Below, one piece after another: positions 1,601 through 34,987 of a stretch of 36,938 bases of DNA. The notes beneath the pieces were generated by a model. That model ran no database searches and was not told where the DNA came from. It saw only the letters and a list, made by a program, of their open reading frames with translations. How positions within the stretch are numbered: the stretch's first letter is position 1; each line of letters starts with the position of its first letter. Made by a program: the position numbers and the translations under genes. Source of the stretch: Reclinomonas americana ATCC 50394. Taxonomy: Eukaryota. The stretch lies in contig PS015243.1 in assembly GCA_048213135.1 (NCBI GenBank), forward strand, positions 9,371-46,308, read 5' to 3'.

Positions 1601-3249
1601 TGTCTCACTCAGGCACATGCACGTAGTCACTCTGCTTCAGTGTATCGACATCCACTCTGCTGCCTCTGACCTTCATTGCATCCCGTATTGTCTCTAAGTA
1701 TCTCTCTCGCTTTCTCGCTTTCTTTTTGTTGTCTCTCTCTCTCTCTTTTGTTGTCTCTCTCTCTTTCTTGCTGTCTCTCACACTCGCACACGCACTCATA
1801 CTCACTCGTGCACACAGTCACTACATCATTGTTTCAACCCCCCCGATGCTCTTTCTGACTTTAATTGCATCCCGTTGTTTCTCAGTTTCTCACACTGTGC
1901 GTTTCTCTCTCTCGCTCACTTCGCACCACACCAACCCCGCTGTGCAGCACTGGTACTGCATCCCAACTTGTCTCACTCACTTGCTCACTCTGTCATTCTC
2001 TCTGCTCCCTCCTCTCCTCTCCCCCTCCCCCCTTTCCCTTTTCCTCCCCCTTCCCCCTTTCCTCATCCCACCCCTCTCCCTTACCACCCCCTTCCCCCTT
2101 CCAGATCCCTTCCGCCTCGCCATCCTCGCCCACGCCAGCCCCTACGAAAGCGCCCACAACTCCGGCCTCTCCCCCTCCACCTACCCACTCCTGCAGGCAC
2201 TGCGCGACCGCGGCGAGCACCTCTACCACGTCGACGTGGTCGTGTGGGACAGCGCGCCGGCCAGCGAGCAAGCCGCCCACCTCGCCACCTACGACCTGGT
2301 GCTGGTGCGCGAGACGTGGGACTACCACGAGAAGCCGCGTGCGTGGCGCGAGTTCCTCGCCGCCTTGGCCAGCAGTGGTGCGCGCGTGGCGAACGCCGTG
2401 CGCATCCTGCAGTGGAACACCGACAAGGTGGCGTACTTGAGCGATTTGCAGCGGCAGGGGGTGCCGGTGGTGCACACGGTGGCGGTGCGACGCGGTGAAG
2501 GAGAAGAGGGAGGCGGAGAATGGCGGCCTGTGCCTTCGGTGGAGGAGGTGATGGGTTCGTTTGCGGCGCTGGAGTGGCCGCTGGTGGTGAAGCCGGCCAT
2601 GTCCGCCAATGGGTACATGACGACGCGAGTGTATGGGAGGGAGGAGTTGGAGGCGGCGGTGCGGGAGGTGTTGGCGACGGCGGAGGATGCGGTGGTGATG
2701 GTGCAGCCGTTTATGAGGGGTGTTTTGGAGGAGGGGGAGGTGTCGACGGTGAGGGGGAAGAAGGGAAAGGGGTGAAGGGAAAGGGGTATAAGGGAATGGG
2801 GGAGAAGAGAGAGAAGAGGAGGAAAAGAGCAAGAAAGGGGAGGAGGAGAACAGAGATGAGGTGGGAGAGGGCGTGAGAGAGAACGAAACACAAGAAAGAA
2901 AAAATGAGCACGTAAGACAGAGAAACAGAAAGTACACTAAAGAATGCAACAGGAAAGAAAGTGGTCTTGTTTGCCGTGTTGTCAACACTCCCTCCGACTT
3001 CGCGTCTGACTGGTAGATTACTTTTCTCACTCCCCATTCTGCTCGTTTCCTCACGTGCTCTCGCACTCTCTTTCTCTTTGCACGCACTCTTTATCTCTCT
3101 CGCACACACTAATCCTCCCAACCTAAGTTCCTCCTCTTTCACTCTTTCTCAAACGTTCTCTGCCCATTTCTTCTCTTTCTCATCCTTCTTTCTTTCGTTT
3201 CTTCTACTTCCTCCTCGTCGTGTTATTGGTGTTGTTTTGTTGTTCTTGC

Positions 3250-3280
<31 letters not shown>

Positions 3281-4116
3281 CTTATTCTTCTTCTTCCTCT
3301 TCTTCTTTCTTTTCTTATTCTTGTTCTTGTTCTTTTCCTTTTTCATCTTCTTCTTTCTTCTTTTCTTCTTCTTGTCCTCCTCCGTGTCTTCTTCTTGCTC
3401 TTATCTTCTTCTTCTTGTCTTTGTTTTTCTTCTTGCTTCTCTTCTCCTTCTCAGAAGTGCTTCTCTTCTCCTTCTCAGAGAAGACATTACTTCTCTTTCC
3501 AATCATGAATGCGAAGAGACTTGCTTTTCAGCTCATCTTCCTCCGTTCATGAAGATAAGTAAATCATTCCCTCTCTTTCTTCGTCTTCTTCTTCTTCTTT
3601 CTCCTTCCTCTTCCTCTCCTCTCTCCTCTTCCTCCTCCTCCTCCTCCTCCTCCTCCTCCTCCTCCTCCTCCTCCTCCTCCTCCTCCTCCTCCTCCTCCTC
3701 CTCCTCCCTCCCTCCCTCCCTCCCTCCCTCCCTCCTCCTCCTTTCTCCTTCTCACTCTTTCCCTTTCCCACCAGATCTTCATCGGCCACCAACACGCCGG
3801 CAGCGTGATCAAACGCCCCGCTTCCGGCGAATTCCGCGTGCAGGAGCAATACAAGGGCACGACGCTGGCGCACGAGACCACTCCAGAGCAGCTGGCCAGC
3901 GCCGAGCGCGTGTTGCGGGCCGCCGAGGAGGTCCTCGGTGTCGACGAGAATGGCGACGACTGCTTCTTTTGGTATGCGCGAGTCGACAGTGTGATGGTGG
4001 ATGGCGTGTTGACGCTGATGGAGCTGGAGGTTATTGAGCCGTCGTTGTATGGCGAGAAAATTCCGCAGGCCACCGTGATGATGTGTGAGTTGATTGAGAG
4101 GATGTTGATTGAGTGA
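172..4116 (+). CDS. ATP-grasp ligase of bacterial RimK/glutathione-synthetase-like (DcsG-like) type, ~330 aa; exons 172-178 (tentative), 2105-2748, 3775-4116
   Basis: The spliced translation has family motifs VRETWDY, NAVRILQWNTDKVAYL, PLVVKPAMSANG, MVQPFM..V.EEGEVS|IF, IKRPASGEFRVQEQY and YARVD...LMELEVIEPSLY. Intron 2749-3774 is GT..AG, phase 0. The 7-nt first exon (ATGGCCA|gttgcg) is phase-compatible with the acceptor at 2104 and gives MANPFRLAIL, but it is less certain. Confidence 0.85.
740..2000. repeat. Complex diverged direct repeats with CT/CA microsatellites inside predicted intron 1 of the ATP-grasp gene
   Basis: atgcacgtagtcactctgcttca..tatcgacatccactctgctgcctctgaccttcattgcatcccgt occurs at ~818 and ~1617. 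Related sub-blocks (cgatgctctttct.act...ttgcatccc) occur at ~1112, ~1320 and ~1844. The 12-mer cactcacttgct is in tandem at ~1468-1543. Confidence 0.8.
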
Positions 4117-4590: not shown

Positions 4591-7533
4591 TCACAGTTCC
4601 ATTGTGAACTGCCCACATGCATCGCGCAGCGTACGCATCACATCGAGCACCTCTTGCGAGGTTGGCCGATCGCGTCGCACACTCATGCATCGCATGCCGA
4701 GTTCGAACATGGGTTCGACGATCCGCGGCGTCCATTCCACGCGAGCGTCCACCAACTCCATGGGGCGCAACGAGGCAGCAGAGCGATCCCATCTCACTGA
4801 CCAATCCACCACCGTCGCCACGGGCTTCCCAGTGACCAGCTGCACCAGCACAATGCCCATGCTGTACACGTCGTGCTCTGGATCTGGAATCCGCACACGC
4901 ATCGCCAGTGGGTCCATGTAGTCCAGCGTGCCGGCGGCGGTGGTCGTCTGTGTGGCCAGGAAATGAGACAGTGAAGAAGAGAGAGGAAAAGGAACCAAAC
5001 AAACCTTGCCATCTGCAATCGACCGTGCAATGCCAAAGTCACCGAGACATGGCTCCAGTCGGTGATCGAGAAGTACATTGGAGGGCTTGATGTCGCGGTG
5101 TACCACGTTGTTCTGTGAAGAGAGATGAGTGAGGCGAGGAACAAAGCATGGAAACACAACAGCGAGAAAAGGAGAAAGTGTGAGAGACTTGGAGAAACAC
5201 GAACAGCACGAGAGCGACAAGGAGAGAGAGCACACGAGACTTGTTGGCGATCACTGGTAGATGCTCATTGTTGTGTATGGATTAGTGAAGTTTTTATTAT
5301 TATGAAGAGAAAAGGGGCAAGAACAGAGAGCGAGGACTATTCAGGGAGAGAACACGTGAGAGTGGAAGAGACAAGAACAGCAAATGAGTGACGAAAAGAG
5401 AAGAGGAAGAGAGTGCAGCGACAGAGAGCTCGGGTGACGGAAAGGGTGGATGGGAGATGGAGGATGGATCGACATCGCACAAACCTTGTGCAGGAACACC
5501 ACAGCCTCGGCCAGTCCGAGACCAATCTGCACACGCTGTACGACCGTGAGTGGTACCCGACCAGCACGAGGCAGCAGCAGCAGATCCTCCAGGTTGGGAA
5601 CTCTGCGTGTTACACAGTGAGGAGGTAATGCGAGAGAAAAGGAAAGGAGAGAGATGAACACGCACTGCAGGGCCTTGTACACGAGACAGCGTGCCTTGTC
5701 GTCCCCCACCGAGAAGCCGACAAGGGGGACAATGCGACGGTCACGCAGACGACTGAGGGTGGCCACCTGCGAGATGAGGAGAATGAGAGAGAGAGAGAAG
5801 AAACAGGAGAGAAGGAGAGAGACACAAACCTCACTCTCAAACGACTCCATTGTCCACGGAGCGTCGGGATCGAGCACCTTGATGGCCACGTGCATTTCGC
5901 GGAGTATGGAGATAAAGACGGCACCCTGACCACCTTCACCGACCTTGAGGCGTGGGGAGAATGAATCGGTGGCTTGCACTATCTCGGGCCACTCGAAGCG
6001 CTGTACGGCGGTGTCGACTGTGCAAGGTGTGACAGGGAAGTGAGAGATGAGTGAGAATGAATGACGTTGAACACTGATGTGAAGAAAGAAAGAGGGGCAA
6101 GAGGCAGACCTTGGGTGAGGAGGAGATCCTGTCGCAGCTGAGAGATGAGTTGATTGCTTTCTTGCAGCTGCGCGGCGAGATCGTCCTTGTCGCGCAGGGC
6201 CGCAGTCAGCTGAGCCTGCAGTTGGCCATGAGCTTGCTGCAATTGCGTGATTTGATGTTGTCCGTCAGCGTGAGCTCGCTGCCATTCTGAGTTGGCTTGT
6301 TGAAGTTGGGCATTCCTCTGCTGCTCACTGGCATGCGCTCGCTGCCACTCCGTGTTGGCTTGCTGCAGTTGGGCGACCTTGTGCTGCTCCTCGACCTTGG
6401 CTCGCTCAAGCTCCGCGTTGATTCGCTGCAACTGGGCATTTTTCTCCTGCTCCTCGGCCTTGCCTCCTTCGAGCTGTGCATTGGCTCGCTGCAGCTGAGC
6501 GACAATGTCCTCCAAGTCTCGTCGCTGTCGATCCCACTCTCGCTGCTGCTGCTCTCGCTCCTGTTGCGCGGCGGCAAAATCGCGCTGGAGTTGCGCAAGA
6601 AGTGCGTCCTTGTCGGCGAGCTGGCGTGCGACGGTGAGATCATCAACAGCCGACTGCAATTTACGAGAGTGCGGGGGAGACACGGAACGGATGCGAGAAG
6701 TGAGTTTCACGAGCAACAGGAAGCAGAGAGTGGCAGCACTCTGTCTCACCTGGCGTGCTGGCACTGCATCATATTGGCCAGGAACGACACACAAGGACAA
6801 ACACAGATGGTGGAGCGTGAGCACGAACACACCATGCCAACACACATAGAGGTCAAACCTGCAGGAGGCGGGGATCGCGGCTGCTGAAGTTGCTGTTGGC
6901 GTGGTGGAGCTGGTTGCGCAGCGAGGTGGTTGAGCATGTCGGCAACTTGCTGCTTGCCTTCGTCGCGTGCCCACTGAGCCGCCGTCTTGCCCTTCTTGTT
7001 GACCATGGGAATGAGGTCGGGAAAGCGACTGGCGAGGAGTTGCACAATGGCTTCGCGGCCATTGTAGGCAGCATAATGCAGAGCAGTGGACTGTGGACTG
7101 CCTTCACGATCATTGGTGACTGCCCGCACCATCTCCGGCGGACATCGTCGCTCATCGGCAAGCAACCACTCCACCACTTGCAGCTGCCCATTGTAGGCAG
7201 CCGTCATCAGTGGCGTCCAGCCATAGTCGCTGACCATTTGTGCTAATTGCGGGCCCACGCCACTCTGCTCCCACAAATACTCCAACACAGAGAGATGGCC
7301 TTTCCAAGCGGCATAGTAAAATGCCGAGCGGCCAACATAATCCATCTCCTCTCTCATCAGCAGCGTTTGTGCACCCTCACGCGCCACCAACTCGCGCAGT
7401 GCCTTCACATCACCCTTCTCCGCCATCTCCCATGCTTTCTTTCGACGAGCACTGCCACCAAAGAGGCAAAAGCAGAAGCGCGAGTGAGAGTGAGAGTGAG
7501 AATGCCACCTGACAACATCACAGCACACCTCAT
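4591..7533 (-). CDS. Copy A: ankyrin-repeat / coiled-coil / IRAK-Pelle-like Ser/Thr kinase (9 exons, apparently intact)
   Basis: ANK exon 6859-7451 contains SAFYYAAWKGH, TPLMTAAYNGQ and TALHYAAYNGR, followed by a Q/E-rich heptad exon. Kinase motifs are RFEWPEIVQATDSFS..KVGEGGQGAVF, VAIK, CLVY, HRDIKPSN, DFG, GTLDYMDP and DVYSMG. Intron positions match copy D. Confidence 0.9.
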
Positions 7534-7913
7534 TTTCTTTGATCCCGAGACTGAAGGGGAAACGATAGTATCTCTCTATCTATCTATCTCGGCGCCTGAC
7601 ACACCCTGCGCCCTCTTCCCCTGGACTGCCTTTCTCCGCGTGTCCTGTTTCATGCTGGACGGCAATGGATCGACGTTGTGTTGTGCGATGACTTGCGAGA
7701 GTAACTTCTGTGAAGTGCAGAACGGCTTCATCACATGGCAAACTTTGTCGCTAACTTGGGTATCTGGTGACAGCTTCATTTCGACAGCATGAATGGTGCA
7801 GTCGATCACGATCTGCGCGTCAAACGCATCCTCTCACTTGGCCACGGCCTTCCTCCAGTGACTCATTTTTACTTACATTCATCTCAACGCTTCTCCAGCA
7901 CGTCGGACTTGGA

Positions 7914-9024
7914 TCAATCCTCTTCACGCAGATGCGCAGCGCGATCATCCTTGTCGCGCAGTGCAGCAGTCAGTTGACTCTGCAGTTGACCATGAGCTCG
8001 CTGCCACTCTGCATTGCCTTGCTGCAGCTCCGAGACAGATCGCTGCAGCTGAGCGATGATTTCTTCGTACTCCCGTCGCTGCCGATCCCACTCTCGCTGC
8101 TGATCCACTCGTTCCTGCTGCGCTGCTGCAAGATCGCGCTGGAGTTGTGCGAGGAGTGTGTCCTTGTCGGCCAGCTGGCGTTGCAATGTGGCGAGATCGT
8201 CGTCAGCCGCCTGCAAGAAGCCAGATGTGACACAAGAGTTCGCGGGTGAAATGGAACACAAGGACGATCAACAGACGCACAGGTTGACACTCACTGTCTC
8301 ACCTGGCCCACTGGCGCTGCGTCTTTCGCCCGGGGATGAATGTGTGAGCACGAATCACAACTTGACAGCACCCAAGAGAGACTCCACACCTGCTGATAGA
8401 GGAGACTGCGCAGCGAGTCGGTCAAGCAACTCGGCCGCCGCAGGGTTGTCGTTATCGCGCGCCACCTGCGCCGCCGTCTTCCCCTCTTTGTCGACCATGG
8501 GAACGAGTTCGGGGAAGCGAGTGGCGAGGAGTTGCACGATGGCTTCGCGGCCTCGATAGGCAGCATAATGCAGTGCAGTGAAATGCGGATAGAAGTCACG
8601 GTCATAGGAGACCGCCCGCACCATCTCCTTCGGACATCGTCGCTCATCGGCAAGCAACCACTCCACCACATGCAAATGCCCATAGTAGGCAGCCGACATC
8701 AGTGGCGTCGAGCCCCAATCGCTGACCATTTGTGCTACTTGCGGGCCCACGCCACTCTCCTCCCACAAATACTCCAACACAGAGAGATGGCCTCTGGCAG
8801 CGGCATTGTGAAATGCCGACCAGCCAGCACTTCCCATCTCCTCTCTTTTCAGCAGAGTGCGTGCTCCCTTACGCGCCACCAACTCGCGCAGTGCCTGCAC
8901 ATCACCATCATAAGCCATCTGCCATGCTTTCTTCCGAGGAGCACTGCCACCAAAGAGGCAAAGGCAGAAGCGCGAGTGAGAGTGAGAGAGGAATGCCACC
9001 TGACAACATCATAGCACACCTCAT
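7914..9024 (-). CDS. Copy B: ankyrin-repeat / short coiled-coil protein with no kinase domain
   Basis: Exons 9020-9024, 8390-8943, 8303-8316 and 7914-8210 are phase-consistent. The frame ends ...AAHLREED-TGA where paralogs continue QEKDQL. Only ~260 bp separate this stop from copy A's upstream motif, and no kinase sequence lies there. Confidence 0.75.
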
Positions 9025-9480
9025 TTTCTTTGATCACGAGAATGAAAAGAAACAACAGCAACACACTCTCTCTCTCTCCCTCTCCCTCTCTCTCTCTCCT
9101 CTGCCTCACACTCACTGTGTAATGATTTTTCCGCGGGTCCTGTTCCATGTGCGGACAGAGATGCATTGGCGACGTCGTGTTCTCGCCAGGAGAGATCTGT
9201 TGAGTTGATCAGAAGGGTGCTGTGCACACAAGTCAGCCCTTGCTCACTAATATTGCCTTGCGCCAGCTGCAAGTCAACAGCAAGACGTTCCTCAATCATG
9301 CTTCACGACGCATGTCGCGTCCACATTCCGACGACGCTGACAGCAAGGCAGCGTATTCCTCGGTCACTGGATAATGCTGATCCGCGCCAGCTCTATCGAA
9401 CGACGTATTCCTCGCGTGACTGTCTCTGGCTCAATTCACTTGCTTTCATCATGTCAAAGTACCATGGTAATCTGCACACA

Positions 9481-9648
9481 CCTCGCGCATCACATCGAAC
9501 AGCTCCTGCGACGTCTGGTTCATGCATCGCCTGTCGAGATCGAACATGCGTTCAGCGATGCGCGGTGTCCACACTGCTCTACTATCCGCAAGCTCCATGG
9601 GTGCAGCGAAGAAAGCAAGTCGTCCGACTTGCCAAGCAAGCGACCACC
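9481..9648 (-). pseudogene. Decayed remnant of the last Pelle-kinase exon
   Basis: Translates PMELADSRAVWTPRIAERMFDLDRRCMNQTSQELFDVMR, against PMELVDARVEWTPRIVEPMFELGMRCMSVRRDRPTSQEVLDVMR in copy A. The RRDRP segment is deleted and no upstream kinase exons are present. Confidence 0.85.
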
Positions 9649-9674
9649 TCCTGCCTCCTGTCTGCCGTCTCTCA

Positions 9675-9817
9675 CTACGACGGTCCAGCCGCAGCCGCTC
9701 CAAGCCCTCCTACCACGCCGGCTGCCTCGCACAATCGCTTCAGCTCGTCGTGCACATATGTTGCTGACACGCGCGTTGCTTGCGGCCTCTGCATCGCACG
9801 AAGACTGAGTCCTCGTT

Positions 9818-9860
<43 letters not shown>

Positions 9861-9927
9861 TACAAACACTCTCTTTGTGTGTCTGTCTGACAGGCTGTCT
9901 GTCTGCCTATCTATCTGCATGTCTGCC

Positions 9928-9960
<33 letters not shown>

Positions 9961-9971
9961 GGCTGGCTGGC

Positions 9972-10046
<75 letters not shown>

Positions 10047-21652: not shown

Positions 21653-22381
21653 TCACGGCTCCTCCGTCGCCAACGGCACATACGCACCACCTCCACCTCC
21701 ACTCGCCACCCCCGTCGGCGTCTCTCCCTTTCTCCCCCCAATCACCCTCGACGCCGGCACACCACCACTGCTCCTCCTCCTCTTCTCCGCACTCGACGAT
21801 CCCACCGACCCATTACACAGCATGCACGCCACAAAACAGCATCCAAACAGCGCAAACAACACCGTAAAGAACACACCCATCAATCCAATCGCCGAGAGCA
21901 CATAGTACGCGCGCCCGGCATTGCCCGCACGCGGATCGTCCCAGAAAAACCTCAAGTTCTTCGTCTGGAAGATGAACGAGGCGAGATTCATCGCCCCCGC
22001 GCCCATCAACCCAAACAACGCCACCACCGCGAGCACAACGCCAAGCGCCACAAGCACTTTCCCGCGCACAGTGTCCGTCGAGGCAGTGAACGAGGCCGCG
22101 TAGCCTTGAATTCCCTCGGGAGGCGGCGCTTCCGTGTCATCGTCTTGCTGTCCGCAGCAAACGACCAGCGCAGCAACGCCCAACGCGAGCGCGGCAGTTC
22201 CCGCGCAAATGATGGTGGAGGCGAGGGAGAGGCGGACGGCGGATTGCACTTGAACGTTGCCCGAGTGATCGGCGGCGGAGTAGATGAGGAAGAGAGGGAC
22301 TTGGAGGCCGAGGAAGAAGCCGAGGTAGATGGTGATGATGATGGTGATGATGGAGAGGAAGAAGCAGCGGGGGGACACCAT
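21653..22381 (-). CDS. T2: unknown intronless 4-transmembrane protein, 242 aa
   Basis: MVSPRCFFLSIITIIITIYLGFFLGLQVPLFLIYSAADHSGNVQVQSAVRLSLAS...FQTKNLRFFWDDPRAGNAGRAYYVL...GAYVPLATEEP*, with four hydrophobic helices. The start was chosen as the ATG just before TM1. Confidence 0.8.
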   Translation of the reverse strand: MVSPRCFFLSIITIIITIYLGFFLGLQVPLFLIYSAADHSGNVQVQSAVRLSLASTIICAGTAALALGVAALVVCCGQQDDDTEAPPPEGIQGYAASFTASTDTVRGKVLVALGVVLAVVALFGLMGAGAMNLASFIFQTKNLRFFWDDPRAGNAGRAYYVLSAIGLMGVFFTVLFALFGCCFVACMLCNGSVGSSSAEKRRRSSGGVPASRVIGGRKGETPTGVASGGGGGAYVPLATEEP

Positions 22382-22860
22382 CTCTCCGTCCCAAAGTGTG
22401 TGTGTGTGTGTGAAAGGGTGCAAAGATATGTGCTCGCGGGTGGATTTCGCGAGCACGAAAGTGGGGAACTCATGTTGAGTTGGAAAGGGGAGGGAGAAAG
22501 TGGGAAAGTGCATGTGGAGAGGAGGTGGGGGAGAGGTGATGCGTGCAGGGCTGCTGGAGAGTGGATCATTGCACTTTTTGTGATTGCAATTTCGATATCG
22601 ATATCGACATACACTTGCTGCTGCTGTTGTGATTGCGTGCAACAACAACAACAACTTTACTAACCCAAACAGCAACACAGCTGCATGATGATCACCATCT
22701 TGAGTGAGCACCAGAAACTCAGACATACGAACGGAAAAAAAGCGAAGAAAAGTCGAAGATGGACTAATGACTAGCGCTTCGNNNNNNNNNNNNNNNNNNN
22801 NCGTCGTCGTCGTCGTCGTCTCGTCTCTCTTCTTCTTCTTCTTCTTCTTCTTCTTCTTCT

Positions 22861-22917
<57 letters not shown>

Positions 22918-23123
22918 GCTTGAGATGCAGCAACTCGTTTCCACCGTAGAACTACTGCTGTCCTCGCCGAAGCTGTCGCGTATTGTGCACTGAGGGTGGA
23001 TCATCCACGCGAGTCTTGCTTCTATTCTCGCAAGTTCTCTGTTCTCACTTTCACACTCGATCTCGCGCACTGAAGCAGCAACAAGGCGCACAAGAACACT
23101 CAGACACAACCCCTGCATTCATC

Positions 23124-25950
23124 TCACAGTTCCAGCGTAAACTGCCCACAAGCCTCTCGCAGCGCGCGCATCGTATCGAGAACCGCCTGCGAGGTCGGCC
23201 GGTCAGGGCGCATCGTCATGCATCGCATGCCGAGCTCAAACATCGGTTCGGCGATGCGTGGGGTCCACTCTGCTCCGCCGTCCACCAACTCCATCGGGCG
23301 CAGCGAGGCAGCACCAGAGCGATCCCATCTCACAGACCACCCGACCACTGTGGCGACGGGCTTGCCGGTGACCAGCTGCGCCAGCACGATGCCCATGCTG
23401 TACACGTCGTGCTCTGGATCTGGAATCCTCACACGCATCGCCATTGGGTCCATGTAGTCCAGGGTGCCGGCGGCGGTTGTTGTCTGCGAGATGAGAGAAG
23501 GTGAGAGGGCGAGGAAGGGAGAAAGCAGAACGAAAGCCAACAAACCTTGCCATCTGCAATCGACCGCGCAATGCCAAAGTCACCGAGACATGGCTCGATA
23601 CGGTGATCGAGAAGCACGTTGGAGGGCTTGATGTCGCGGTGCACCACATTGTTCTGCGAGGAGAGGTGAGTGAGATGAGGAAGAAAGCATAATACACAAC
23701 AGCGAAAACAAGAGAAACTGAGAGAGATTTGGAGAGACACGAACAGCACGAGAGCGGCAAGGAGAGAGGAGAGAAAAATGTCAAGACCAGAGAGCAACGG
23801 CTATTCAGAGAGAGAGAGAGAGAGCACGTAAAAGTGGGAGCGACAACAACAGCGAAAGAGTGACGAGGATAGAAGAGGAAGAGAGTGCAGCAACAGAGAG
23901 CTCGGGTGACAAAGAGAGGGTGAATGGGAGATGATAGATGATATCCACATCGCACAAACCTTGTGCAAGAACACCACGGCCTCGGCCAATCCGAGGCCAA
24001 TCTGCACGCGCTGCACGACAGAGAGTGGCACCCGACCAGCGCGTGGGATAAGCAATAGATCCTCAAGGTTGGGAACTCTGTGTGTTTTCACAGTGAGATG
24101 ATGATGGAAAAGAGGGGGAGAAAGAGATGAACACGCACTGCAAGGCCTTGTACACGAGACAGCGTGCCTTGTCATCGCCCACCGAGTAACCGACAAGAGG
24201 CACAATACGACGATCGCGCAGGCGTCCGAGAGTGGCCACCTTGTGAGATGGGGAAAAGGATGAGGAGAAAGAGGGAGAAGAAACAGGAGAATGGAGAGAG
24301 AGACACAGACCTCACTCTCAAACGACTCCATCGTCCACGGCGCATCGGGGTCGAGCACCTTGATGGCCACATGCATCTCGCGGAGGACAGTGATGAAGAC
24401 GGCACCCTGGCCACCCTCGCCAACCTTGAGACGGGAGGAGAATGAGTCGGTGGCGTGCACGATCTCGGGCCACTCGAAGCGCTGCACGACGGTGTCGACT
24501 GTGGCAAGGGTGATTGGGAAGTGAGAGATGGGTGAGAATGGAGGACATAAAACACTGACATCAAGAAAGAAAGAGGGCAAACAACAGACCTTGGGTGAGG
24601 AGGAGGTCCTGTCGCAGCTGGGAAACGAGTTGATCCTTTTCTTGCAGCTGCGCAGCGAGATCGTCCTTGTCACGCAGAGCTGCAGTCAGCTGAGCCTGTA
24701 GTTGGCCATGAGCTTGCTGCAATTGCGTGATTTGATGTTGTCCGTCAGCGTGAGCTCGTTGCCATTCACCGACCGCCTGCTGCAACTGGGCGTTCTTTTG
24801 TTGCTCCTCAACCTTGGCTTGCTCAAGCTCCGCGTTGATTCGCTGCAAATGGGCATTTTTCTGCTGTTCCTCGGCCTTCCCCTGTTCGAGCACTGCGTTG
24901 GCTTGCTGCAGCTGTGCGACAATGTCTTCGTGCTCTTGCCGCTGTCGGTCCCACTCCCGCTGCTGCTGCTCTCGCTCCTGTTGTGCTGCGGCAAGATCTC
25001 GCTGCAGTTGCGCAAGGAGTGCGTCCTTGTCGGCGAGCCGGCGTGCCATGGCGGGATCATCAACAGCGGTCTGCAATTTACAAGAGTGCGAGGGAGACAC
25101 GGAGCGGATGTGAGAAGTGAGTTTCACGAGCAACAAGAACCAGAGAGTGGCACTCTCCGTCTCACCTGGCGTGCTGGTGCTGCGTATTCGCCAGAAACGA
25201 CGCACAAGGACAAACACAGTTGGTGGAGCGTGAGCACGAACACAACTTGCCAACAGACATAATCGAGGTCATACCTGCAGGTGGCGGGGATCGCGGCTGT
25301 TGTTGTTGCAGCTGGCGTGGTGGTGCTGATTGTGCATCGAGGCGATCGAGTAATACGGCCACTTGGTGCTTGTCGTTGTCGCGCGCCCACTGAGCCGCTG
25401 TCTCGCCCCGCTTGTTGACCATGGGAATGAGGTCGGGGAAGCGAGTGGCGAAGAGTTGCACAATGGTTTCGTGCCCTATGGCGGCAGCCCAATGCAGTGC
25501 CGTGGACTGTGGATCGTAAGAATGGTCACTGGTGACCGCCCGCACCATCTCCGGCGGACATCGTCGCTCATCGGCAAGCAACCACTCCACCACTTGCAGA
25601 CGTCCATTGTAGGCAGCAATCATCAGTGGCGTCCAGCCATCGTCGTTGACCAGTTGTGCGAGTTGTGGCCCCACGCCACTCTCCTCCCACAAATACTCCA
25701 ACACAGAGAGATGGCCATTCCCTGCTGCAAAGAAAAATGCCGAACCACCACGAAACTCATCGATCTCCTCTCTCTTCAGCAGCGTTTGTGCGCCCTCATG
25801 CGCCACCAACTCGCGAAGTGCCTTCACATCGCCATCCCTCGCCATCTGCCATGCTTTCTGCAGACGAGCACTGCCACCAAAGAGGCAAAAGCAGAAGCGC
25901 GTGTGAGAGTGCGGGAGAATGCCATCTGACAACATCGCAGCACACCTCAT
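23124..25950 (-). CDS. Copy E: ankyrin / coiled-coil / IRAK-Pelle-like kinase (9 exons, apparently intact)
   Basis: Same exon structure and kinase motifs as copy D. ANK motifs are SAFFFAAGNGH, TPLMIAAYNGR and TALHWAAAIGH. Confidence 0.9.
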
Positions 25951-25984
25951 TTTCTTTGATCGAGACTGAAGGGGAAACGATAGC

Positions 25985-25986
<2 letters not shown>

Positions 25987-26074
<88 letters not shown>

Positions 26075-26173
26075 TCGTTCGTTCGTTCGTTCGTCGTCGT
26101 CGTCGTCGTCGTCGTCGGTACGTACGGTCGTCGTACGTCGTCGTCGTCGTCGTACGTCGTCGTACGTACGTAC
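25987..26173. repeat. (CT)n/(CGT)n microsatellite expansion upstream of copy E, abutting a small gap
   Basis: Directly visible CT run followed by cgt/cgtt/cgta repeats. Confidence 0.9.
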
Positions 26174-26287
26174 NNNNNNNNNNNNNNNNNNNNGTAGCCG
26201 ACTACTCGTACAACAACTACGCACGCACACCTACCACTTTTCTTTTTCGTTATCGTACGACGTAGTAAGGGGAAACGGAAGTAGACA

Positions 26288-26328
<41 letters not shown>

Positions 26329-28340
26329 CGCGCACTGGGGCGCACAGCGTTTTTGATCGCGTTTTTCCGTCGATGTCCTCTTGTATTAGCGGACAGGGGG
26401 GCACAGGCGACGTCGTCTCGTTGCTTCCTCACTGGCAGGAGAAAGTCGGAGAATGAGACTCTTCCTCCTGCACCTCCGCCACAAAACACTGCTCCTCAGC
26501 CTCTTCTGTATATAAAGCAAACACAGCAACGTCGATCGATATTGGCACATGTGACACTGTGACATGTACGCGTCGAGGCGACATGCACTGGAACTGGCAC
26601 GACTTCGGAAGAAAGACGGATGCTTACGAGGAACTGAACTGCTTGCTCGGAAGCGTGGCAAGTCGCAGACAGCAAACGTGAGTGACTTGTTTTTCGACGT
26701 CGACGACAAACAGCAACGCAGTTGCGTGTCTCTCTTCGACGATACACAGCGAGAGTCATGGAGAACCATGGAGACAAACGACTGTCACTCCAGAGTGTCC
26801 ACTGCTGTCTGTTTGCAAGGATTGTGGCAATGTGGCTCACGACACACTGTACGGTTTTGGAGAGTGCTGCTAGTGCACATTAACGCATTTGCATGACCGC
26901 CTCTTTGACAGCAGAGAGAGAGAGAGAGAGAAAGAGATCGAGGGAGGAATCGAAAGGAGGAAGAGGAGGTGGAAGGAGACCACGTGAATGTGCAGTGCAA
27001 TGGCGCAGTCAGGAAAGTCAACTCGAGTCAAGATCTGAGAAGAGATCGCGGACTTGGTCGTCCGCATCGCAAACTCTGCAGAGGCAGCACAGGGCAGGAG
27101 AGAGACCAAGCTAGCAGGAGAAAAGTGGGGGATGCGGACGAGTAAGACAGAAGGAAGGAGTGGGAGAGAGGAGGGAGACCGCAAGGTTTTCTCCGATATA
27201 GAAGGGCACGGGAAACCCAACATAATCTGCCAGCGCAAGGGCAAGTGCAGTCGAGGTAAATGGTTGCAGAGTGGGCAGGAAGGAGACACGAGCTTGCAGG
27301 AGAAGACGCGAGGACGTGAACGAGTGAGACAGAGAGAAGGAAACGGAAAAAAAGAAAGACAGAGAAATGAGCTGCGAGCGCAAAATCGATGTCACACAGC
27401 CAGACGCAATCGGCCCGGCTCGCGGCTCGAGCCCTCTTGTCAAGCACGCACACATCCATCGACCCTCGCTGCATTACTGATCTTCCCCCTCACCGTTCCC
27501 TTGCAAGCCTGCAGCTCGCAAACCTCATATTTCTCATTGTTTCAAATTCTCTCTTCGGGTTTTTCAGCCCTCTCTTCCACCAACTCTCTGCCTCGCCCTT
27601 TCTCCTCTCCCACGATCCCTATGGCACTCAACCGAACGCTCTTCCTCCTCTTTCCTCGCACTCCACAGCACTTCCGACTCAATTTCTCGTCATTCTTTCG
27701 ACGACTCACTCTCCGCTGCCTCAACTCAACAACGGCACGAGCAGAGCACGGCTTCCAGAAGAACGAGAGAGAGCACAGCTGTGAAAATGAGAGGAGAGCA
27801 CAAGAGAGGAGAGCAGATACCAAGAAAAACATGGAGACAACGAAACTGAAAGAATTGAGAGCAGTGGAGAGCACGAAGAAGCTCCTGTCTTTCCTTCTTC
27901 TCCCTTCTTCTCGCCTTATCGTCTCTACGCCACTCTGCTCCTCACGTTCACCATGCGCCATTCAGCTCTTCATTGCACCCATTTTTCTCTCTCCTCTTGC
28001 CTTTCTCCTCCCTTGCCCTCTCCTCCGCTTCCTCTCTTCGTCTCGTAGTCTCTCTCTCTCTCTCACCCTCCTTCCCTCTGTCTCCCTCTGTCCCTCCCAC
28101 TCCCTCCGCATCCTCCTCCCCTCTCTTGCCCATCCCTGCCTCGAACAGCACTCCTCCTGCTCTCTCTCTCACACACACTGTCTCTCTCTTTCTCTCTCTC
28201 TCTCCACTGTCCCACTCCCTCTCTCTCCCTCCCTCTCCTCCCTCCCCTCCCCACCCTTCCCCTCTCCCTCATCCCTTCCCCTTTCCTTCCCCCTTCCCCC
28301 TCGCCCACCTACTTACAAACAACCTCCCCATTCATTACAA

Positions 28341-28778
28341 TCACGGCTCCGCACTCGGCAACAACACATACCCCTTCCCCTCTATACCCTTCGCCACCCT
28401 AAACGGCGACCTCCTCGGCCTCCTCGCCACCTCCCCCTCACCCGGCCGACAACACACCACACAACACACCCAACACGTCACCAACACACCCACCACACAC
28501 ACCACCAGCACACCCACCACCCCAAACGCCGACACCACCACAAACGCCCTCCCCGCACTGCCCACTCGCGCGTCCTCCCAAAAGAACCGCATGTTCCTCG
28601 TCTGCAACACAAACGACACCAAGCTCATCGACGCCGCACCCAGCACGCCCACCACAACCGCCAACGCGAGCAGCAGGCCCACGCACGCAGCGACCTTGCC
28701 ACACATTGTCTCGCGACTGTCGGTGATGGCCTGTAAGCGCGTGGCCTCCTCGCTAAACTGCGCCTCCTCTTCGCTGCT
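28341..28778 (-). CDS. T3: unknown 4-TM family protein, C-terminal half (5' part in gap)
   Basis: ITDSRETMCGKVAACVGLLLALAVVVGVLGAASMSLVSFVLQTRNMRFFWEDARVGSAGRAFVVV...GYVLLPSAEP* aligns with T2. Confidence 0.75.
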   Translation of the reverse strand, partial: SSEEEAQFSEEATRLQAITDSRETMCGKVAACVGLLLALAVVVGVLGAASMSLVSFVLQTRNMRFFWEDARVGSAGRAFVVVSAFGVVGVLVVCVVGVLVTCWVCCVVCCRPGEGEVARRPRRSPFRVAKGIEGKGYVLLPSAEP

Positions 28779-29532
28779 NNNNNNNNNNNNNNNNNNNNNN
28801 NNNNNNNNNNNNNNNNNNNNNNNNNNNNNNNNNNNNNNNNNNNNNNNNNNNNNNNNNNNNNNNNNNNNNNNNNNNNNNNNNNNNNNNNNNNNNNNNNNNN
28901 NNNNNNNNNNNNNNNNNNNNNNNNNNNNNNNNNNNNNNNNNNNNNNNNNNNNNNNNNNNNNNNNNNNNNNNNNNNNNNNNNNNNNNNNNNNNNNNNNNNN
29001 NNNNNNNNNNNNNNNNNNNNNNNNNNNNNNNNNNNNNNNNNNNNNNNNNNNNNNNNNNNNNNNNNNNNNNNNNNNNNNNNNNNNNNNNNNNNNNNNNNNN
29101 NNNNNNNNNNNNNNNNNNNNNNNNNNNNNNNNNNNNNNNNNNNNNNNNNNNNNNNNNNNNNNNNNNNNNNNNNNNNNNNNNNNNNNNNNNNNNNNNNNNN
29201 NNNNNNNNNNNNNNNNNNNNNNNNNNNNNNNNNNNNNNNNNNNNNNNNNNNNNNNNNNNNNNNNNNNNNNNNNNNNNNNNNNNNNNNNNNNNNNNNNNNN
29301 NNNNNNNNNNNNNNNNNNNNNNNNNNNNNNNNNNNNNNNNNNNNNNNNNNNNNNNNNNNNNNNNNNNNNNNNNNNNNNNNNNNNNNNNNNNNNNNNNNNN
29401 NNNNNNNNNNNNNNNNNNNNNNNNNNNNAATCCATCACTGAGGAGAGAATGAGGCAGCGCATAGGAGAAGGTGGATTTCGCGAGCAATACAATGTCCGCT
29501 GTAATGCATTGTACTTTGTTTCCTTCTTGCAC

Positions 29533-29655
29533 CTTCGCGATGGAGAGGAGGAGAATGGCGGCGAAGAGGAGGGTGGAGGCGAGGGAGAGGCGCACGGCCG
29601 ATTGGACTTGAGCGTTTCCGGAGTGATTGGCGGTGGAGTAGATGAGAAAGAGGGG
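29533..29655 (-). pseudogene. Fragment of a further 4-TM family copy
   Basis: PLFLIYSTANHSGNAQVQSAVRLSLASTLLFAAILLLSIAK matches T2, but TM1 and the ATG are missing and there is an in-frame stop just upstream. It is followed by ggtggatttcgcgagca (~29470), which in T2 lies ~60 bp 5' of the ATG (~22439), so T3 probably starts separately in the gap. Confidence 0.6.
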
Positions 29656-29921
29656 AGGGCGAGATCTCTCAGAGGGGTATTGCTGAAAGACTCAGTCTTC
29701 TTCTTCTTCTTCTATTTGAGATGCAGCAACCGGGTTCCACCGTCGAACTACTGCTGTCCTCGCCAAAGCTGTCTCATATTGTGCACGACGTGAGGATTCG
29801 TCCACAAAACATGGATTCTGTTCTTGCAAGTTCTCTGTTCTCGATGTCACACTCGCACACTCCTTCGCAATGAAGCTGCAACAAGCCGCACAAATACACT
29901 TCGACACAGGCTGCATTCATC

Positions 29922-32620
29922 TCACAGTTCCAGTGTGAACTGCCCACACGCCTCACGCAGTGCACGCATCACATCGAGCACCTCCTGCGAAGTTGGCCGA
30001 TCAGGGCGCATGGTCATGCATCGCATGCCGAGCTCAAACATCGGTTCGGCAATGTGTGGCGTCCACTCTGCTCCTCTGTCCACCAGTTCCATCACGCGCA
30101 GCGAGGCAGGTGAGTCGTCCCACTCCACAGACCAATCCACCACCATGGCCACAGGCTTGCCGGTGACCAGCTGGACAAGCACAATGCCCACACTGTACAC
30201 GTCGTGCTTGGGTTGTGGACGGCGCACGCGCATCGCCATTGGGTCCATGTAGTCCAGCGTGCCGGCGGCGGTTGTTGTCTGCGAAGAAAGAAATGAGACA
30301 GTGAAGAAGAGAGAGGGAAAGACAAGCGAACAGACCTTGCCATCTGCAATCGACCGTGCGATGCCAAAGTCACCGAGACATGGCTCCAGTCGGTGATCGA
30401 GGAGCACGTTGGAGGGCTTGATGTCGCGGTGCACCACATTGTTCTGTGAGGGAGGTGAGTGAGGCGAGGAACAAAGCATAAAACACAACAGCGAGAAAGG
30501 AGAAAGTGAGAGAGACTTGGAGACACAAGGAGAGAGGAGAGAAAAGGGCAAGAATAGATAGCAAGGGGCTATTCAGAGAGAGAACACGTGAGATTGGGAG
30601 AGACAACAACAGCGAAAGAGTGACGAGAGAAGAGGAAGAGAATGCAGAACAGAGAGCTCGGGTGACGGAGAGGGTGAATGGGATGGAGGATGGTATCCAC
30701 ATCGCTCAAACCTTGTGCAAGAACACCACAGCCTCGGCAAGTCCGAGGCCAATCTGCACACGCTGCACGACAGAGAGTGGTGCACGGCCTGCGCGTGGCA
30801 GTAGCAATAGATCCTCCAGATTGGGAACTCTGTGTGCTCACTCAGTGAGAAGATGATGGTGGAGTGAGGGGGAAGGAGATGGAAACGCACTGCAGGGCCT
30901 TGTACACGAGACAGCGTGCCTTATCGTCGCCCACCGAGTAGCCGACAAGAGGCACAATGCGACGGTCACGCAGGCGTCCGAGGGTGGCCACCTGCGAGGA
31001 GAGAAGGATGAGAACGGAGATAAGAGAGAAGAAACAGGACAGAGACACCGACCTCGCTCTCGAACGACTCCACCGTCCACGGTGCATCGGGATCGAGCAA
31101 CTTGATGGCCACGTGCATCTCACGAAGCAGGGTAATGAACACGGCACCCTGACCACCCTCGCCGACCTTGAGGCGGGGAGAGAAAGAGTTGGTGGCGTGC
31201 ACGATCTCGGGCCACTCGAAGCGCTGCACCGAGGTGTCGACTGTGGATGAAAAAAGAGTGAGAATGAGTGAGAATGGGGGACTCAGACCACAGACCTTGG
31301 GTGAGAAGGAGATCCTGTCGCAACTGGGAGATAAGTTGATTGCTTTCTTGCAGCTGCGAGGTGAGGTCGTCCTTGTCGCGCAAAGCCGCAGCCAGCTGAG
31401 CCTGCAGTTGGCCGTGAGCTCGCTGCAATTCCGAGTTGGCTTGCTGAAGTTGGGCATTCTTCTGCTGCTCCTCAATCTTGGCTCGCTCAAGCTCCGCGTT
31501 GGTTCGTTGCAACTGGGCATTCTTCTGTTGCTCCTCAGCCTTGCCTCCTTCGAACTCTGCATTGGCTCGCTGCAGCTGAGCGACGATGTCCTCATGCTCT
31601 CGCCGCTGTCGATCCCACTCCCGCTGCTGCTGCTGCCGCTCTTGCTGTGCTGCGGCAAGATCGCGCTGGAGTTGCGCAAGGAGTGCGTCCTTGTCGGCGA
31701 GCTGGCGTGTAACGGTGGGATCATCAACAGCGGACTGCGATTTACGAGAGGGCGAGGGAGACACGGAACGGTTGTGAGAAGTGAGTTTCACGAGCAACAA
31801 GAAGCAGAAAGTGGCACTCTCCGTCTCACCTGGCGTGCTGGCACTGCATCATATTCGCCAGGAACGACACAGAAGGACAAACCACAGGTGGTGGAGCGTG
31901 AACACGAACACAACATGCCAACAGACAAAATAGAGGTCAATACCTGCAGGAGGTGGGGATCGCGGCTGCTGTTGTTGTTGTTGGCGTGGTGGTGCGGGTT
32001 GCACAGCGAGGCGGTCGAGCAACTCGGCAACTTGCTGCATGCCACAGTCGCGTGCCCATTGAGCCGCCGTCTTGCCCTTTTTGTTGACCATGGGAATGAG
32101 GTCGGGGAAGCGAGTGGCCAGGAGTCGCACAATGGGTTCGTGGCCCTTGAAGGCAGCCCAGTGCAGTGCAGTGGACTGCGGATCACCGGTACTGTCATTG
32201 GTGACCGCCCGCACCATCTCCGGCGGACATCGTCGCTCATCGGCAAGCAACCACTCCACCACTTGCAGATACCCACTCTCAGCAACCGTCATCAGTGGCG
32301 TCAAGCCATAGTCGCTGACCATTTGTGCGAGTTGTGGTCCGACACCACTCTCCTCCCACAAATACTCCAACACAGAGAGATGGCCTCTCCAAGCGGCATA
32401 GAAAAATGCCGAGCAGCCACCAGGACTCATCTCCTCTCTCTTCAGCAGACTGTGTGCGCCCTCACTCGCCACCAATTCGCGCAGTGCCTTCACATCGCCA
32501 TTCAGTCCCATCTCCCATGCTTTCTTACGAGGAGCACTGCCACCAAAGAGGCAAAAGCAGAAGCGCGAGTGAGAGCGAGAGAGAGAGAATGCCACCTGAC
32601 AACATCACAGCACACCTCAT
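29922..32620 (-). CDS. Copy F: ankyrin / coiled-coil / IRAK-Pelle-like kinase (9 exons, apparently intact)
   Basis: Same exon structure and kinase motifs as copy D. ANK motifs are SAFFYAAWRGH, TPLMTVAESGY and TALHWAAFKGH. Confidence 0.9.
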
Positions 32621-32994: not shown

Positions 32995-33188
32995 ATGGCC
33001 TCCTCCTCTAGTGGTGGAGGCGACGAAATCCGCCGCCTCCAATACCTCTCTCTCGTCTCTCGCGTGTGCGTCGAGCTAGAGAACCACCTCGGTGTCAGCG
33101 ACCACACCCTCGCCGAGTTCGTCATTGAGCTGGCCAACAGCGCCACCAATGCGCGGCACTTTAGCTCGCAACTGACGGAGAATGGCGC
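32995..33188 (+). pseudogene. Truncated duplicate of the DHX8 5' end
   Basis: Reads identical to 33450-33643 up to ...LTENGA, then runs into a (GA)n tract. Confidence 0.75.
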
Positions 33189-33213
33189 AGAAGGGGGAAG
33201 AGAGAGTTTGCAA

Positions 33214-33449: not shown

Positions 33450-34987
33450 ATGGCCTCCTCCTCTAGTGGTGGAGGCGACGAAATCCGCCGCCTCCAATAC
33501 CTCTCTCTCGTCTCTCGCGTGTGCGTCGAGCTAGAGAACCACCTCGGTGTCAGCGACCACACCCTCGCCGAGTTCGTCATTGAGCTGGCCAACAGCGCCA
33601 CCAATGCGCGGCACTTTAGCTCGCAACTGACGGAGAATGGCGCGGAGATGCCCGAGTCGTTTGCGGAGAACTTGTTCAAGTTGATTCAGCGGATGAAGCC
33701 CAGTGCGGCTTCAAGTGGCGCAAGTGGAAGTGGAAGTGGCGCGAGTGGCAGTGGCGCGAGTGCGGCGGTGGCGAGTGCGGATGTGAGGTGAGTGTGTGTG
33801 TGTGTGTGTGGAGAGAGCGGGAGAGTGCGTGTGTTGTCGACGTCAAAGTGTCACACTTCTATGTGACTCTTCTCCTCACTCTCACTCTCGCACACTTTCA
33901 CTCACTTGTGCACACTCTACAGCTCCCTCTCACGCTCACACACGCGCACTCTTTGCACACAGAGAGAGCACTGATCGTCAAAGTGTCACACTTTTATGTG
34001 ACTCTTCTCTCTCTCACTCTCCCCCCTTCTCACGCACACATGCGCGCTCTTTTCGCTCAGACAAGAAGCGTTGACGATCAAAGTGTCACTCACACACTCT
34101 CTCTCACACATGTACTCTCATGTACACACACTCTACTCTCTCTCACTCTCAGGGAGCCTTGACGACCAAAGTGTCACACTTTTACGTGACTCTTGTCTCT
34201 TGCACTCACTCTCACACTCCTTCTCTCATGCACACTCTCACATACGCACTCACTTGCTCAGACAAGAAGAACCTTCACGATCGAAGTGTCACTTTCATGA
34301 GACTTTGACTTTCACATCACACTGTTGCTCGTGTCTGCCTGCCCTCTCCCTTCTGCTCCCTCTATCTTCACTCTCTTCTCCTCTCATCTCCTTCTCCTTT
34401 CATGCGCGCGCGTGTTTTTCGTGGACATGTCCAATCCATTGTTGCCGCTCACACTCCTTTCCTCCTCGCAGTGGGAAGCGCGCCATGTTCCCCGGCTTGA
34501 GCGTGCCCGACGCACCCGGTCCGATTCCCGTTCAAGTTGGAACCACGCGCAAGCGCGATCGCAGTCCGACCGACGACGACGACGACGACGATGGCGGTGA
34601 TAGGCGCAAGCGACAGCGCGACTTGGAGGGAGGTTCGCGCTCTCCGCCGCCGCCTCGTGGCGATCGTGAGCGGGGGCGGCGCAGTCCGAGTCCGCGGAGC
34701 TCGAGGGGAAGGAGGAGTCCGAGTCCGCCGCCGCGAGGGGGGAGGTCGGAGCGGGGTGGTGCGAGTGGAAGTGGAGTTGCGTCAACAGGGAAAGGGCTGA
34801 GTGAGTGAGGCTCTCGTGCTCTCGAGCTGGCTTTACTGTCTTTCTTTCGTGCTTGTTCTTCAACACATTATCGGACGCGTACTTGTGTTCCTCTCTCTTT
34901 CTCTCGCTCTCTTTCTCTCTCGCTCTTGTCTTCTTCTCAGTTCCTTTCCGCCAGTTTGTCACCCGTTCTCTTCCTCTCGCCTTCTGC

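Follow-up and report, generated by a model that had tools for sequence, protein, structure and literature searches.

A tandem array of ankyrin, coiled-coil and IRAK/RLK-like kinase genes in Reclinomonas americana: a candidate family of diversifying recognition kinases

What kind of system is encoded by a row of neighbouring genes that share one ankyrin-repeat (ANK) and coiled-coil front end and in most cases end in a kinase? The question is raised by a stretch of 36,938 nucleotides from Reclinomonas americana ATCC 50394 (assembly GCA_048213135.1, contig PS015243.1, positions 9,371 to 46,308), here called the window. This DNA is nuclear and eukaryotic, its G+C content is about 55%, and it has short, CT-rich introns of the GT-AG type, abundant microsatellites and seven gaps of N. 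An earlier note on this DNA had described six ANK genes (A to F) and proposed that they form an intracellular immune cluster. The reading to which we give slightly more belief than doubt is that A, D, E, F and the related copies represent a young, lineage-restricted tandem family of cytoplasmic, diversifying recognition kinases. It builds on the architecture of the genes, their integrity, the pattern of selection and the mosaic structure of the copies.

Architecture of the shared front end and the kinase

A tblastn search with the gene A model yields exactly six copies of the ANK exon in the window (E 1e-70 to 1e-123), a count far above chance. All six genes have the same front end, consisting of this four-repeat exon, a putative micro-exon of 14 nt and a coiled coil. 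Pfam Ank_2 is found on the three ANK exons that were scanned (E 1.5e-21 for A, 1.8e-20 for B and 4.8e-21 for C), and the AlphaFold2 (AF2) model of the module, with a mean predicted local distance difference test score (pLDDT) of 89.4, shows paired helices in tandem 33-residue helix-turn-helix units. Four copies (A, D, E and F) are complete, the ANK exon and micro-exon being followed by one coiled-coil exon and five kinase exons. Their eight-exon models have open frames in 4/4 cases with GT-AG borders at every intron (55-372 nt), and a MAFFT alignment gives 84.5-86.1% DNA identity across about 2.8-2.9 kb including introns. The gene order given in the earlier note, A(-) B(-) C(-) FAM221(+) T1(-) D(+) T2(-) E(-) T3(-) F(-), in which T1 to T3 are membrane protein genes, is recovered with FAM221 only as a weak fragment. 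The common front end, too, stands as it had been described.

Lying between the ANK and coiled-coil exons, the micro-exon restores the reading frame. In 6/6 copies it has the same length and is flanked by AG and GT, and in B it still measures 14 nt although the neighbouring introns carry deletions. Just 5' of the ANK exon lies a leader of about 45 nt that is near-invariant in 6/6 copies (7430-7560 in A, with equivalents in B to F). It contains an ATG and then a GT donor, and the intron of about 77 nt that follows ends in AG and gives an in-frame join. Possibly the leader is a 5' mini-exon with the true start, which would lengthen the N-terminus by about 10 basic residues.

The kinase part is recognised by Pfam Pkinase on the C-lobe of A (E 1.9e-18). 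In 4/4 full models we find a G-loop, the VAIK lysine, the HRD and DFG motifs and an APE-like one, and judged by these motifs the kinases of A, D, E and F look catalytically competent. Comparison of the first kinase exon of A with the PDB gave 12 matches at E<=0.05, 11 of which are IRAK/RLK chains (LysM receptor-like kinases (RLKs), IRAK1, CERK1, lectin-RLK and BRI1), the 12th being a designed protein. For the C-lobe the PDB matches are PknB (~1e-12), IRAK4 (7e-12) and BRI1 (2e-11), and also BIK1, lectin-RLK and SOBIR1, with bacterial PknB slightly above IRAK4. The nearest Atlas (language-model) clusters contain streptophyte kinases (0.97), including a cluster of SRK fragments (0.94). Among database proteins of 304-2000 aa, one of the 8,000 candidates scored matched the C-lobe at E<=1e-15 (38% identity, with LRR and kinase Pfam families); a close relative was not seen in this search of longer proteins, which is a weak negative. 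The N-lobe of A, read through two in-frame introns, gave no PDB match at E<=1e-7. Based on the IRAK and RLK matches in the PDB, Atlas and database comparisons, the label Pelle/IRAK/RLK-like is supported for A, D, E and F, short of a phylogeny, in line with the Pelle-type kinase that had been assigned to these four copies.

The remainder of the proteins is readily accounted for. In A, D, E and F we find no death domain (as in IRAK/Pelle) and no transmembrane (TM) segment with ectodomain (as in RLKs), since ANK, linker, coiled coil and kinase together make up the whole protein; nor is there a KEN nuclease after the kinase, as these proteins end where the kinase ends. No Pfam family of NB-ARC or NACHT NTPases occurs in any exon scanned, and A, B, D, E and F are without an unassigned region. 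By hydropathy, none of A to F has a TM or signal-peptide-like segment, the sole hydrophobic stretch (in F) lying inside the kinase C-lobe. This agrees with the cytoplasmic location proposed before. A search with the ANK exon was uninformative, as among the longer proteins of a large database only generic ankyrins were found (<=35% identity). Of 168 pattern matches of the ANK alignment to JGI metagenome contigs one was confirmed, a generic ANK protein (L001, 32% identity); that no close relative was seen there is again a weak negative.

The coiled coil differs in length between the copies, with 181 residues in A, 167 in D, 160 in E, 146 in F and 98 in B. Repeats of 63 nt (21 residues) are detected in the coiled-coil exons of A and E by Tandem Repeats Finder. 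Indels in the body of the coiled coil measure 7, 7, 14, 21 and 70 residues; as all are multiples of 7, the heptad register is preserved, and the sole other indel is a single residue in the linker before the coil. We further predicted the complex of two copies of the coiled-coil exon of A, which scored 0.44 against 0.00 for the best of three controls. The pairing mark used here is reached by 21 of 30 proteins solved as one-chain pairs against 0 of 23 solved as single chains; within eukaryotes 17 of 29 pairs attain it, though just 1 of the 7 that lack an older solved relative, as against 0 of 30 single chains. Agreement between the runs covers 100% of contacts, the partner pLDDT is 87, and the two chains are predicted to run parallel and in register, the interface having 3-4 spacing. 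The prediction supports the view that the coiled coil of A can pair as a homodimer, as had been supposed from the shared coil.

Selection and recombination along the genes

Nonsynonymous and synonymous divergence (dN and dS) were estimated with the Nei-Gojobori method (NG86) between A, D, E and F for the kinase and the coiled coil, and for 15 pairs including B and C for the ANK exon. The kinase shows a dN/dS of 0.08-0.13 (dS 0.42-0.56) and is under strong purifying selection (dN/dS of about 0.1). Values are 0.16-0.24 for the coiled coil (dS 0.33-0.55) and 0.46-0.75 for the ANK exon (dS 0.21-0.41).

These values also bear on the question of whether the array is real. It could be an assembly artefact or a dead array, made of collapsed or mis-joined haplotypes or of pseudogenes. 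Three of the seven N gaps in the window do lie within or beside T1, T3 and the FAM221-like region, and a DHX8-like gene in the flank contains a 197-nt direct repeat of 99% identity. However, the copies differ by 14-16% plus indels and in the length of the coiled coil, which is too much for alleles; no N falls inside any of the six ANK genes; and in 4/4 full copies the frame is open and every splice site intact, with the kinase dN/dS low. We therefore regard an artefact as very improbable.

As binding surface of the ANK module we took the six positions per repeat that are randomised in designed ankyrin repeat proteins (DARPins), namely 33, 2, 3, 5, 13 and 14. The resulting 24 positions were fixed before counting. 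Columns are variable at 18/24 surface positions against 54/145 framework positions (Mann-Whitney p 7e-7, Fisher p 6e-4). The proportion of nonsynonymous differences (pN) at the surface exceeds that of synonymous differences (pS) in the framework in 15/15 pairs (ratios 1.70-3.35, Fisher p<0.05 in 11/15), whereby the pairs are non-independent. Pooled NG86 dN/dS amounts to 0.93 for surface codons and 0.45 for the framework. As read from the sequences, this is the pattern expected of a binding surface that diversifies while its scaffold is constrained, and it fits the sensor-like role that had been suggested for the ANK module.

Alternatively, we might be looking at an ordinary lineage-specific expansion of signalling or scaffold kinases, with paralogs subfunctionalised for example in cytoskeleton, cilium or developmental signalling, and with ANK variation that reflects relaxed constraint after duplication. 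Such expansions have precedents: oomycete kinases of the tyrosine kinase-like (TKL) group lie in clusters that expand by unequal crossing-over and include members with N-terminal ankyrin repeats (PMC3019232), and few ancestral kinases have been duplicated as often in eukaryotes since their last common ancestor as the IRAK4 type (bioRxiv 10.1101/2020.01.27.920793). Moreover, the dN/dS of the surface codons is compatible with neutrality. What makes this explanation rather unlikely in our view is that the excess at the surface recurs in every one of the 15 pairs, and that framework and kinase are strongly constrained, so the copies are not decaying.

Recombination has left clear traces in the full copies. 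Between A, D, E and F there are 137 quartet-informative sites, of which 63 support AF|DE, 38 AD|EF and 36 AE|DF. The sites are clustered along the gene: they form 62 runs, where shuffling gives 89.0 +/- 5.4, and a number as low comes up in 0 of 20,000 shuffles. Given such clustered and conflicting sites, the paralogs are mosaics formed by gene conversion or unequal crossing-over. The same recombination explains the truncated copy B, the chimeric copy C with its relic tail and the inverted copy D, which is the only one on the plus strand. Together with the relic these copies bear out the birth-and-death evolution described in the earlier note.

Another observation concerns the introns of A, D, E and F, which are less diverged than synonymous sites (84-90% identical, Jukes-Cantor d 0.11-0.18). 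Four-fold degenerate differences amount to 0.19 in the ANK exon, 0.24 in the coiled coil and 0.30 in the kinase, and about 28% of those in the kinase are in CpG context. Both introns flanking the micro-exon are 89-96% identical. Candidate causes of the low intron divergence are intron constraint, CpG hypermutation and gene conversion.

Truncated and chimeric copies and neighbouring genes

In copy B the ANK exon and the micro-exon lead into a coiled coil of reduced length, which ends in a stop; B thus is the one copy without a kinase, as claimed before. In its ANK framework pN (0.12-0.13) is lower than pS (0.16-0.29). Since the framework is still constrained, B is probably a working ANK-coiled-coil protein.

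In copy C the homology to A ends near 12990. Beyond this point come a coiled coil that is unrelated to the shared one, then region X with some 230 residues and finally a kinase of another kind. Pfam Pkinase matches this kinase at 10805-11200 with E 1.4e-13 (51.3 bits, against 46.7 bits for PK_Tyr_Ser-Thr), and from its sequence motifs it looks active. A TKL kinase had been claimed for C. The kinase domain is confirmed; the TKL label is unproven, as the best PDB matches of the middle exon are CDK6 and CDK1, with C-lobe motifs that look TKL-like. Because the model of C ends within kinase subdomain XI, the gene may continue into another 3' exon. A candidate for it is the relic of the last kinase exon of an A-type gene (9467-9646), which by tblastn has 47% identity to residues 596-661 of A (E 1.5e-10). 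A (TGTC)48 microsatellite and GA-rich tracts (9876-10068) are located directly downstream of the stop of C, before this relic. The second coiled coil of C has PADLOC matches to JetC and LmuB, none better than E 1e-4, which we discounted as noise typical of coiled coils.

Region X had been taken for a HEPN domain, and thereby as an RNase output. It contains an Rx4-6H motif at residue 560 of C, yet when region X is shuffled, 91% of the resulting sequences still hold one or more of these motifs (2.2 on average), and A, D, E and F each show 3-6 of them. Region X is split over three or more exons; searches with these exons taken singly (X2 and X3) gave 0 matches in Pfam, PADLOC or the PDB, and for exon X2 (90 residues) 0 matches among 1.84 billion representatives at E<=0.001. 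With a motif expected by chance and no homology on the separate exons, a HEPN domain in C is unsupported, yet not disproved. Accordingly, the three different tails reported for the array come down to one effector type, one truncation and one chimera. The diversity of effectors did not stand, as the four kinases are near-identical (dN 0.04-0.06).

These results weigh on the immune cluster as first proposed, in which ANK sensors would hetero-oligomerise through the coiled coil and be coupled to different effectors (kinase and RNase) in the manner of NLR sensors and helpers. A diversifying ANK surface beside a conserved kinase would suit such a cluster, as would birth-and-death evolution with mosaic recombination, a coiled coil predicted to pair and a kinase-less B that could serve as decoy. 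The kinase itself is of the IRAK/Pelle/RLK type, a family of innate-immune signalling in animals and plants (PMC3019232). On the other hand, an NTPase switch domain is absent from every model, so that the NLR-like sensor and helper logic is not supported; no RNase output is shown, HEPN being unsupported; and there is one effector type only, in four near-identical copies. An immune role of the array is possible, while the cluster in its proposed form seems unlikely to us.

The array is interleaved with T1, T2 and T3, which are paralogous multi-pass membrane proteins next to D, E and F (Table 1). T2 is downstream of E and T3 downstream of F, and T1 has the same low-to-high position beside the inverted D. 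Homology is also seen between the 3' flank of E (22901-23120) and that of F (29697-29918), with 76% identity. Protein identity between T1, T2 and T3 is 37-42% (37% for T1 and T2), with dS of 0.75-0.9 and dN/dS of 0.4-1.0. The loop that joins the last two helices holds one near-invariant motif in all three, and T2 and T3 share their C-terminal end. The libraries searched yielded no relative of this family. For T2 no Pfam family above cutoff and no near-length homolog was found, the best Atlas hit (0.84) being uninformative, and its AF2 model (pLDDT 58.5) is too poor for a fold search.

Table 1. Features of the array, with positions in the window and the basis of each model
Feature	Position	Strand	Description
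Gene A	4591-7426	-	665 aa; 8-exon GT-AG model without internal stop
Gene A exons	ANK 6859-7426; micro-exon 6750-6763; coiled coil 6110-6653; five kinase exons 4591-6017	-	Kinase exons include the stop
Gene B	7914-8918	-	279 aa; ANK 8390-8918, micro-exon 8303-8316, short coiled-coil exon 7914-8210 with stop
Relic of A-type last kinase exon	9467-9646	-	Downstream of C; tblastn and open reading frame (ORF) listing
Gene C	10212-13969	-	About 900 aa, 11 exons; manual GT-AG model, ORF intact
Gene C front exons	ANK 13402-13969; micro-exon 13296-13309; shared coiled coil 12943-13201	-	
Gene C rear exons	Second coiled coil and orphan region X 11632-12875; distinct Ser/Thr kinase 10212-11577	-	
FAM221-like fragment	15426-15842	+	Between N gaps 14891-15423 and 15990-16101; sub-threshold Pfam match
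T1, multi-pass membrane protein	16105-16764	-	ORF and hydropathy; truncated by N gap 16766-17413
Gene D	17868-20572	+	645 aa, ANK-coiled coil-kinase; 8-exon GT-AG model; micro-exon 18516-18529
T2, candidate single-exon 242-aa protein	21653-22381	-	Four hydrophobic helices; downstream of E
Gene E	23124-25845	-	646 aa, ANK-coiled coil-kinase; 8-exon GT-AG model; micro-exon 25166-25179
T3, membrane protein, T paralog	28344-29691	-	Downstream of F; interrupted by N gap 28779-29428
Gene F	29922-32511	-	630 aa, ANK-coiled coil-kinase; 8-exon GT-AG model; micro-exon 31830-31843

Other genes of the window are less well defined. The label FAM221 derives from a single Pfam match below threshold (E 0.076, 13.1 bits against a cutoff of 25), so that of the gene named in the earlier note a weak fragment remains. 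To the left of the array, a gene at 1627-4113 (+) has a sub-threshold match to ATP-grasp (Dala_Dala_lig_C, E 3.7e-4, 20.5 bits against a cutoff of 24) and contains long CTC/TTC-type microsatellites, which give poly-Pro and poly-Gly when read in open frames. The direct repeat in the right flank (32995-33191 and 33450-33646, 455 nt apart) is the doubled first coding exon of the DHX8-like gene, with an (AG)n tract separating the two units. Either a tandem duplication took place here very recently, or the assembly is at fault.

Comparison with known systems and a possible function

In the literature searched, supplements excluded, no description of a tandem family of ANK, coiled coil and IRAK/RLK-like kinase was found, which is a weak negative. 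In kinase matches and active-site motifs the array resembles the RLK/Pelle-IRAK kinases, among them IRAK1, IRAK4 and the receptor-like cytoplasmic kinases (RLCKs, e.g. BIK1); like the RLCKs, its kinase is soluble and without ectodomain. The difference lies at the N-terminus. Whereas IRAK/Pelle have a death domain, RLKs a TM segment with ectodomain and RLCKs a short lipidated N-terminus, the array has none of these and instead carries four ankyrin repeats and a coiled coil of 146-181 residues. In Phytophthora, five IRAK-class kinases of unknown role are listed in the kinome (PMC3019232).

Closer in domain order are the ANK plus TKL kinases, of whose known expansions the array is a variant. Ankyrin repeats stand N-terminal to a TKL-group kinase in integrin-linked kinase (ILK) and in TNNI3K. 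The same order is found in the Phytophthora OS1 member PITG_06288, which has 15 N-terminal ankyrin repeats on a TKL kinase (PMC3019232). The array shares this order and adds to it a long, heptad-phased coiled coil, an IRAK/RLK-like kinase and a diversification focused on the surface. RNase L has the order ANK, pseudokinase and KEN/HEPN nuclease. Here, too, ANK repeats precede a kinase fold, which would be relevant to C if region X were HEPN. In contrast to RNase L and Ire1, however, a KEN/HEPN domain is not detected, region X of C precedes the kinase and the protein ends at the kinase; also, the array kinases look active by their motifs, unlike the pseudokinase of RNase L.

A second group of systems, repeat-based candidate immune receptors that evolve by birth and death, is similar in its mode of evolution. 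Plant NLR clusters, fungal NLRs with hypervariable ANK, WD or TPR repeats (PMC4986451) and the brown-algal ROCO-LRR candidate immune receptors (PMC11378527) share with the array clustered tandem paralogs, a hypervariable repeat surface and recombination or exon shuffling. The array differs in being without NB-ARC, NACHT or ROC-COR NTPase, its kinase being fused directly through a coiled coil. The Nek expansion of Giardia is alike in the combination of kinase, ANK and coiled coil and differs in kinase family. Many of its copies are reportedly catalytically dead, with cytoskeletal roles, and its kinases are said to be combined with ANK and coiled-coil modules. It is a large, lineage-specific kinase expansion (PMC3218828).

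With respect to ligand binding, signalling through dimers and the roles of B and the T proteins, we infer the following scheme. The ANK surface of each paralog would bind a different partner or ligand, and the coiled coil would hold two kinase domains together. Binding might then alter kinase activity or the access of substrates, with phosphorylation as the output. The family would grow and change by unequal crossing-over and gene conversion, which would also have yielded B and C. B, having no kinase, could be a regulator or decoy through heterodimerising, and the fast-evolving T1, T2 and T3, proteins of four TM helices, may be membrane partners.

Several points weigh against recognition kinases of this kind. 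The surface positions follow the DARPin and ankyrin literature, and they are structurally the most tolerant ones as well. At 0.93, the dN/dS of the surface codons is not above 1, so the excess exists only relative to synonymous change in the framework, a baseline which gene conversion could have lowered. As long coiled coils resemble many solved structures, the dimer prediction may pass partly through such likeness. The gene models derive entirely from paralog comparison and selection, that is, from the sequence level, and this holds also for the 14-nt micro-exon that we infer. Finally, the T genes are far more diverged than the kinase genes, by which co-duplication as one cassette is not proven; either the T genes predate today's kinase copies, or homogenisation has acted on the kinase genes.

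A bolder proposal is a receptor-kinase recognition system that would have arisen independently of plant RLKs and of animal TLR-IRAK signalling. Each of T1, T2 and T3 would be paired with a cytosolic ANK-coiled-coil-IRAK-like kinase, whose diversifying ANK module would read the variable cytosolic loop or tail of the T protein or else a foreign ligand. B would act as decoy and C as an alternative output, the whole being an innate-immunity or self/non-self cassette of a unicellular eukaryote that evolves by birth and death and gene conversion. The evidence for a pairing of the T genes with D, E and F is positional, and we consider the proposal quite unlikely at present.

Returning to the family of diversifying recognition kinases, its interest lies in the kinase it employs. 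Innate immunity in both animals and plants signals through IRAK, Pelle and RLK kinases, whose wiring outside animals and plants is, to our knowledge, poorly known. The array offers a compact and tractable design of variable binder plus constant kinase, in which an ANK module, a coiled coil predicted to dimerise and an IRAK/RLK-like kinase are combined in one protein. Interest would rise sharply if the ligands turned out to be foreign or non-self, or the T proteins to be paired receptors. In the case of foreign or non-self ligands, the array would represent an independent route to immune-type receptors. Otherwise it would still be a clean natural case of surface-focused ANK diversification, of heptad-quantised change in coiled-coil length and of domain shuffling by tandem recombination.

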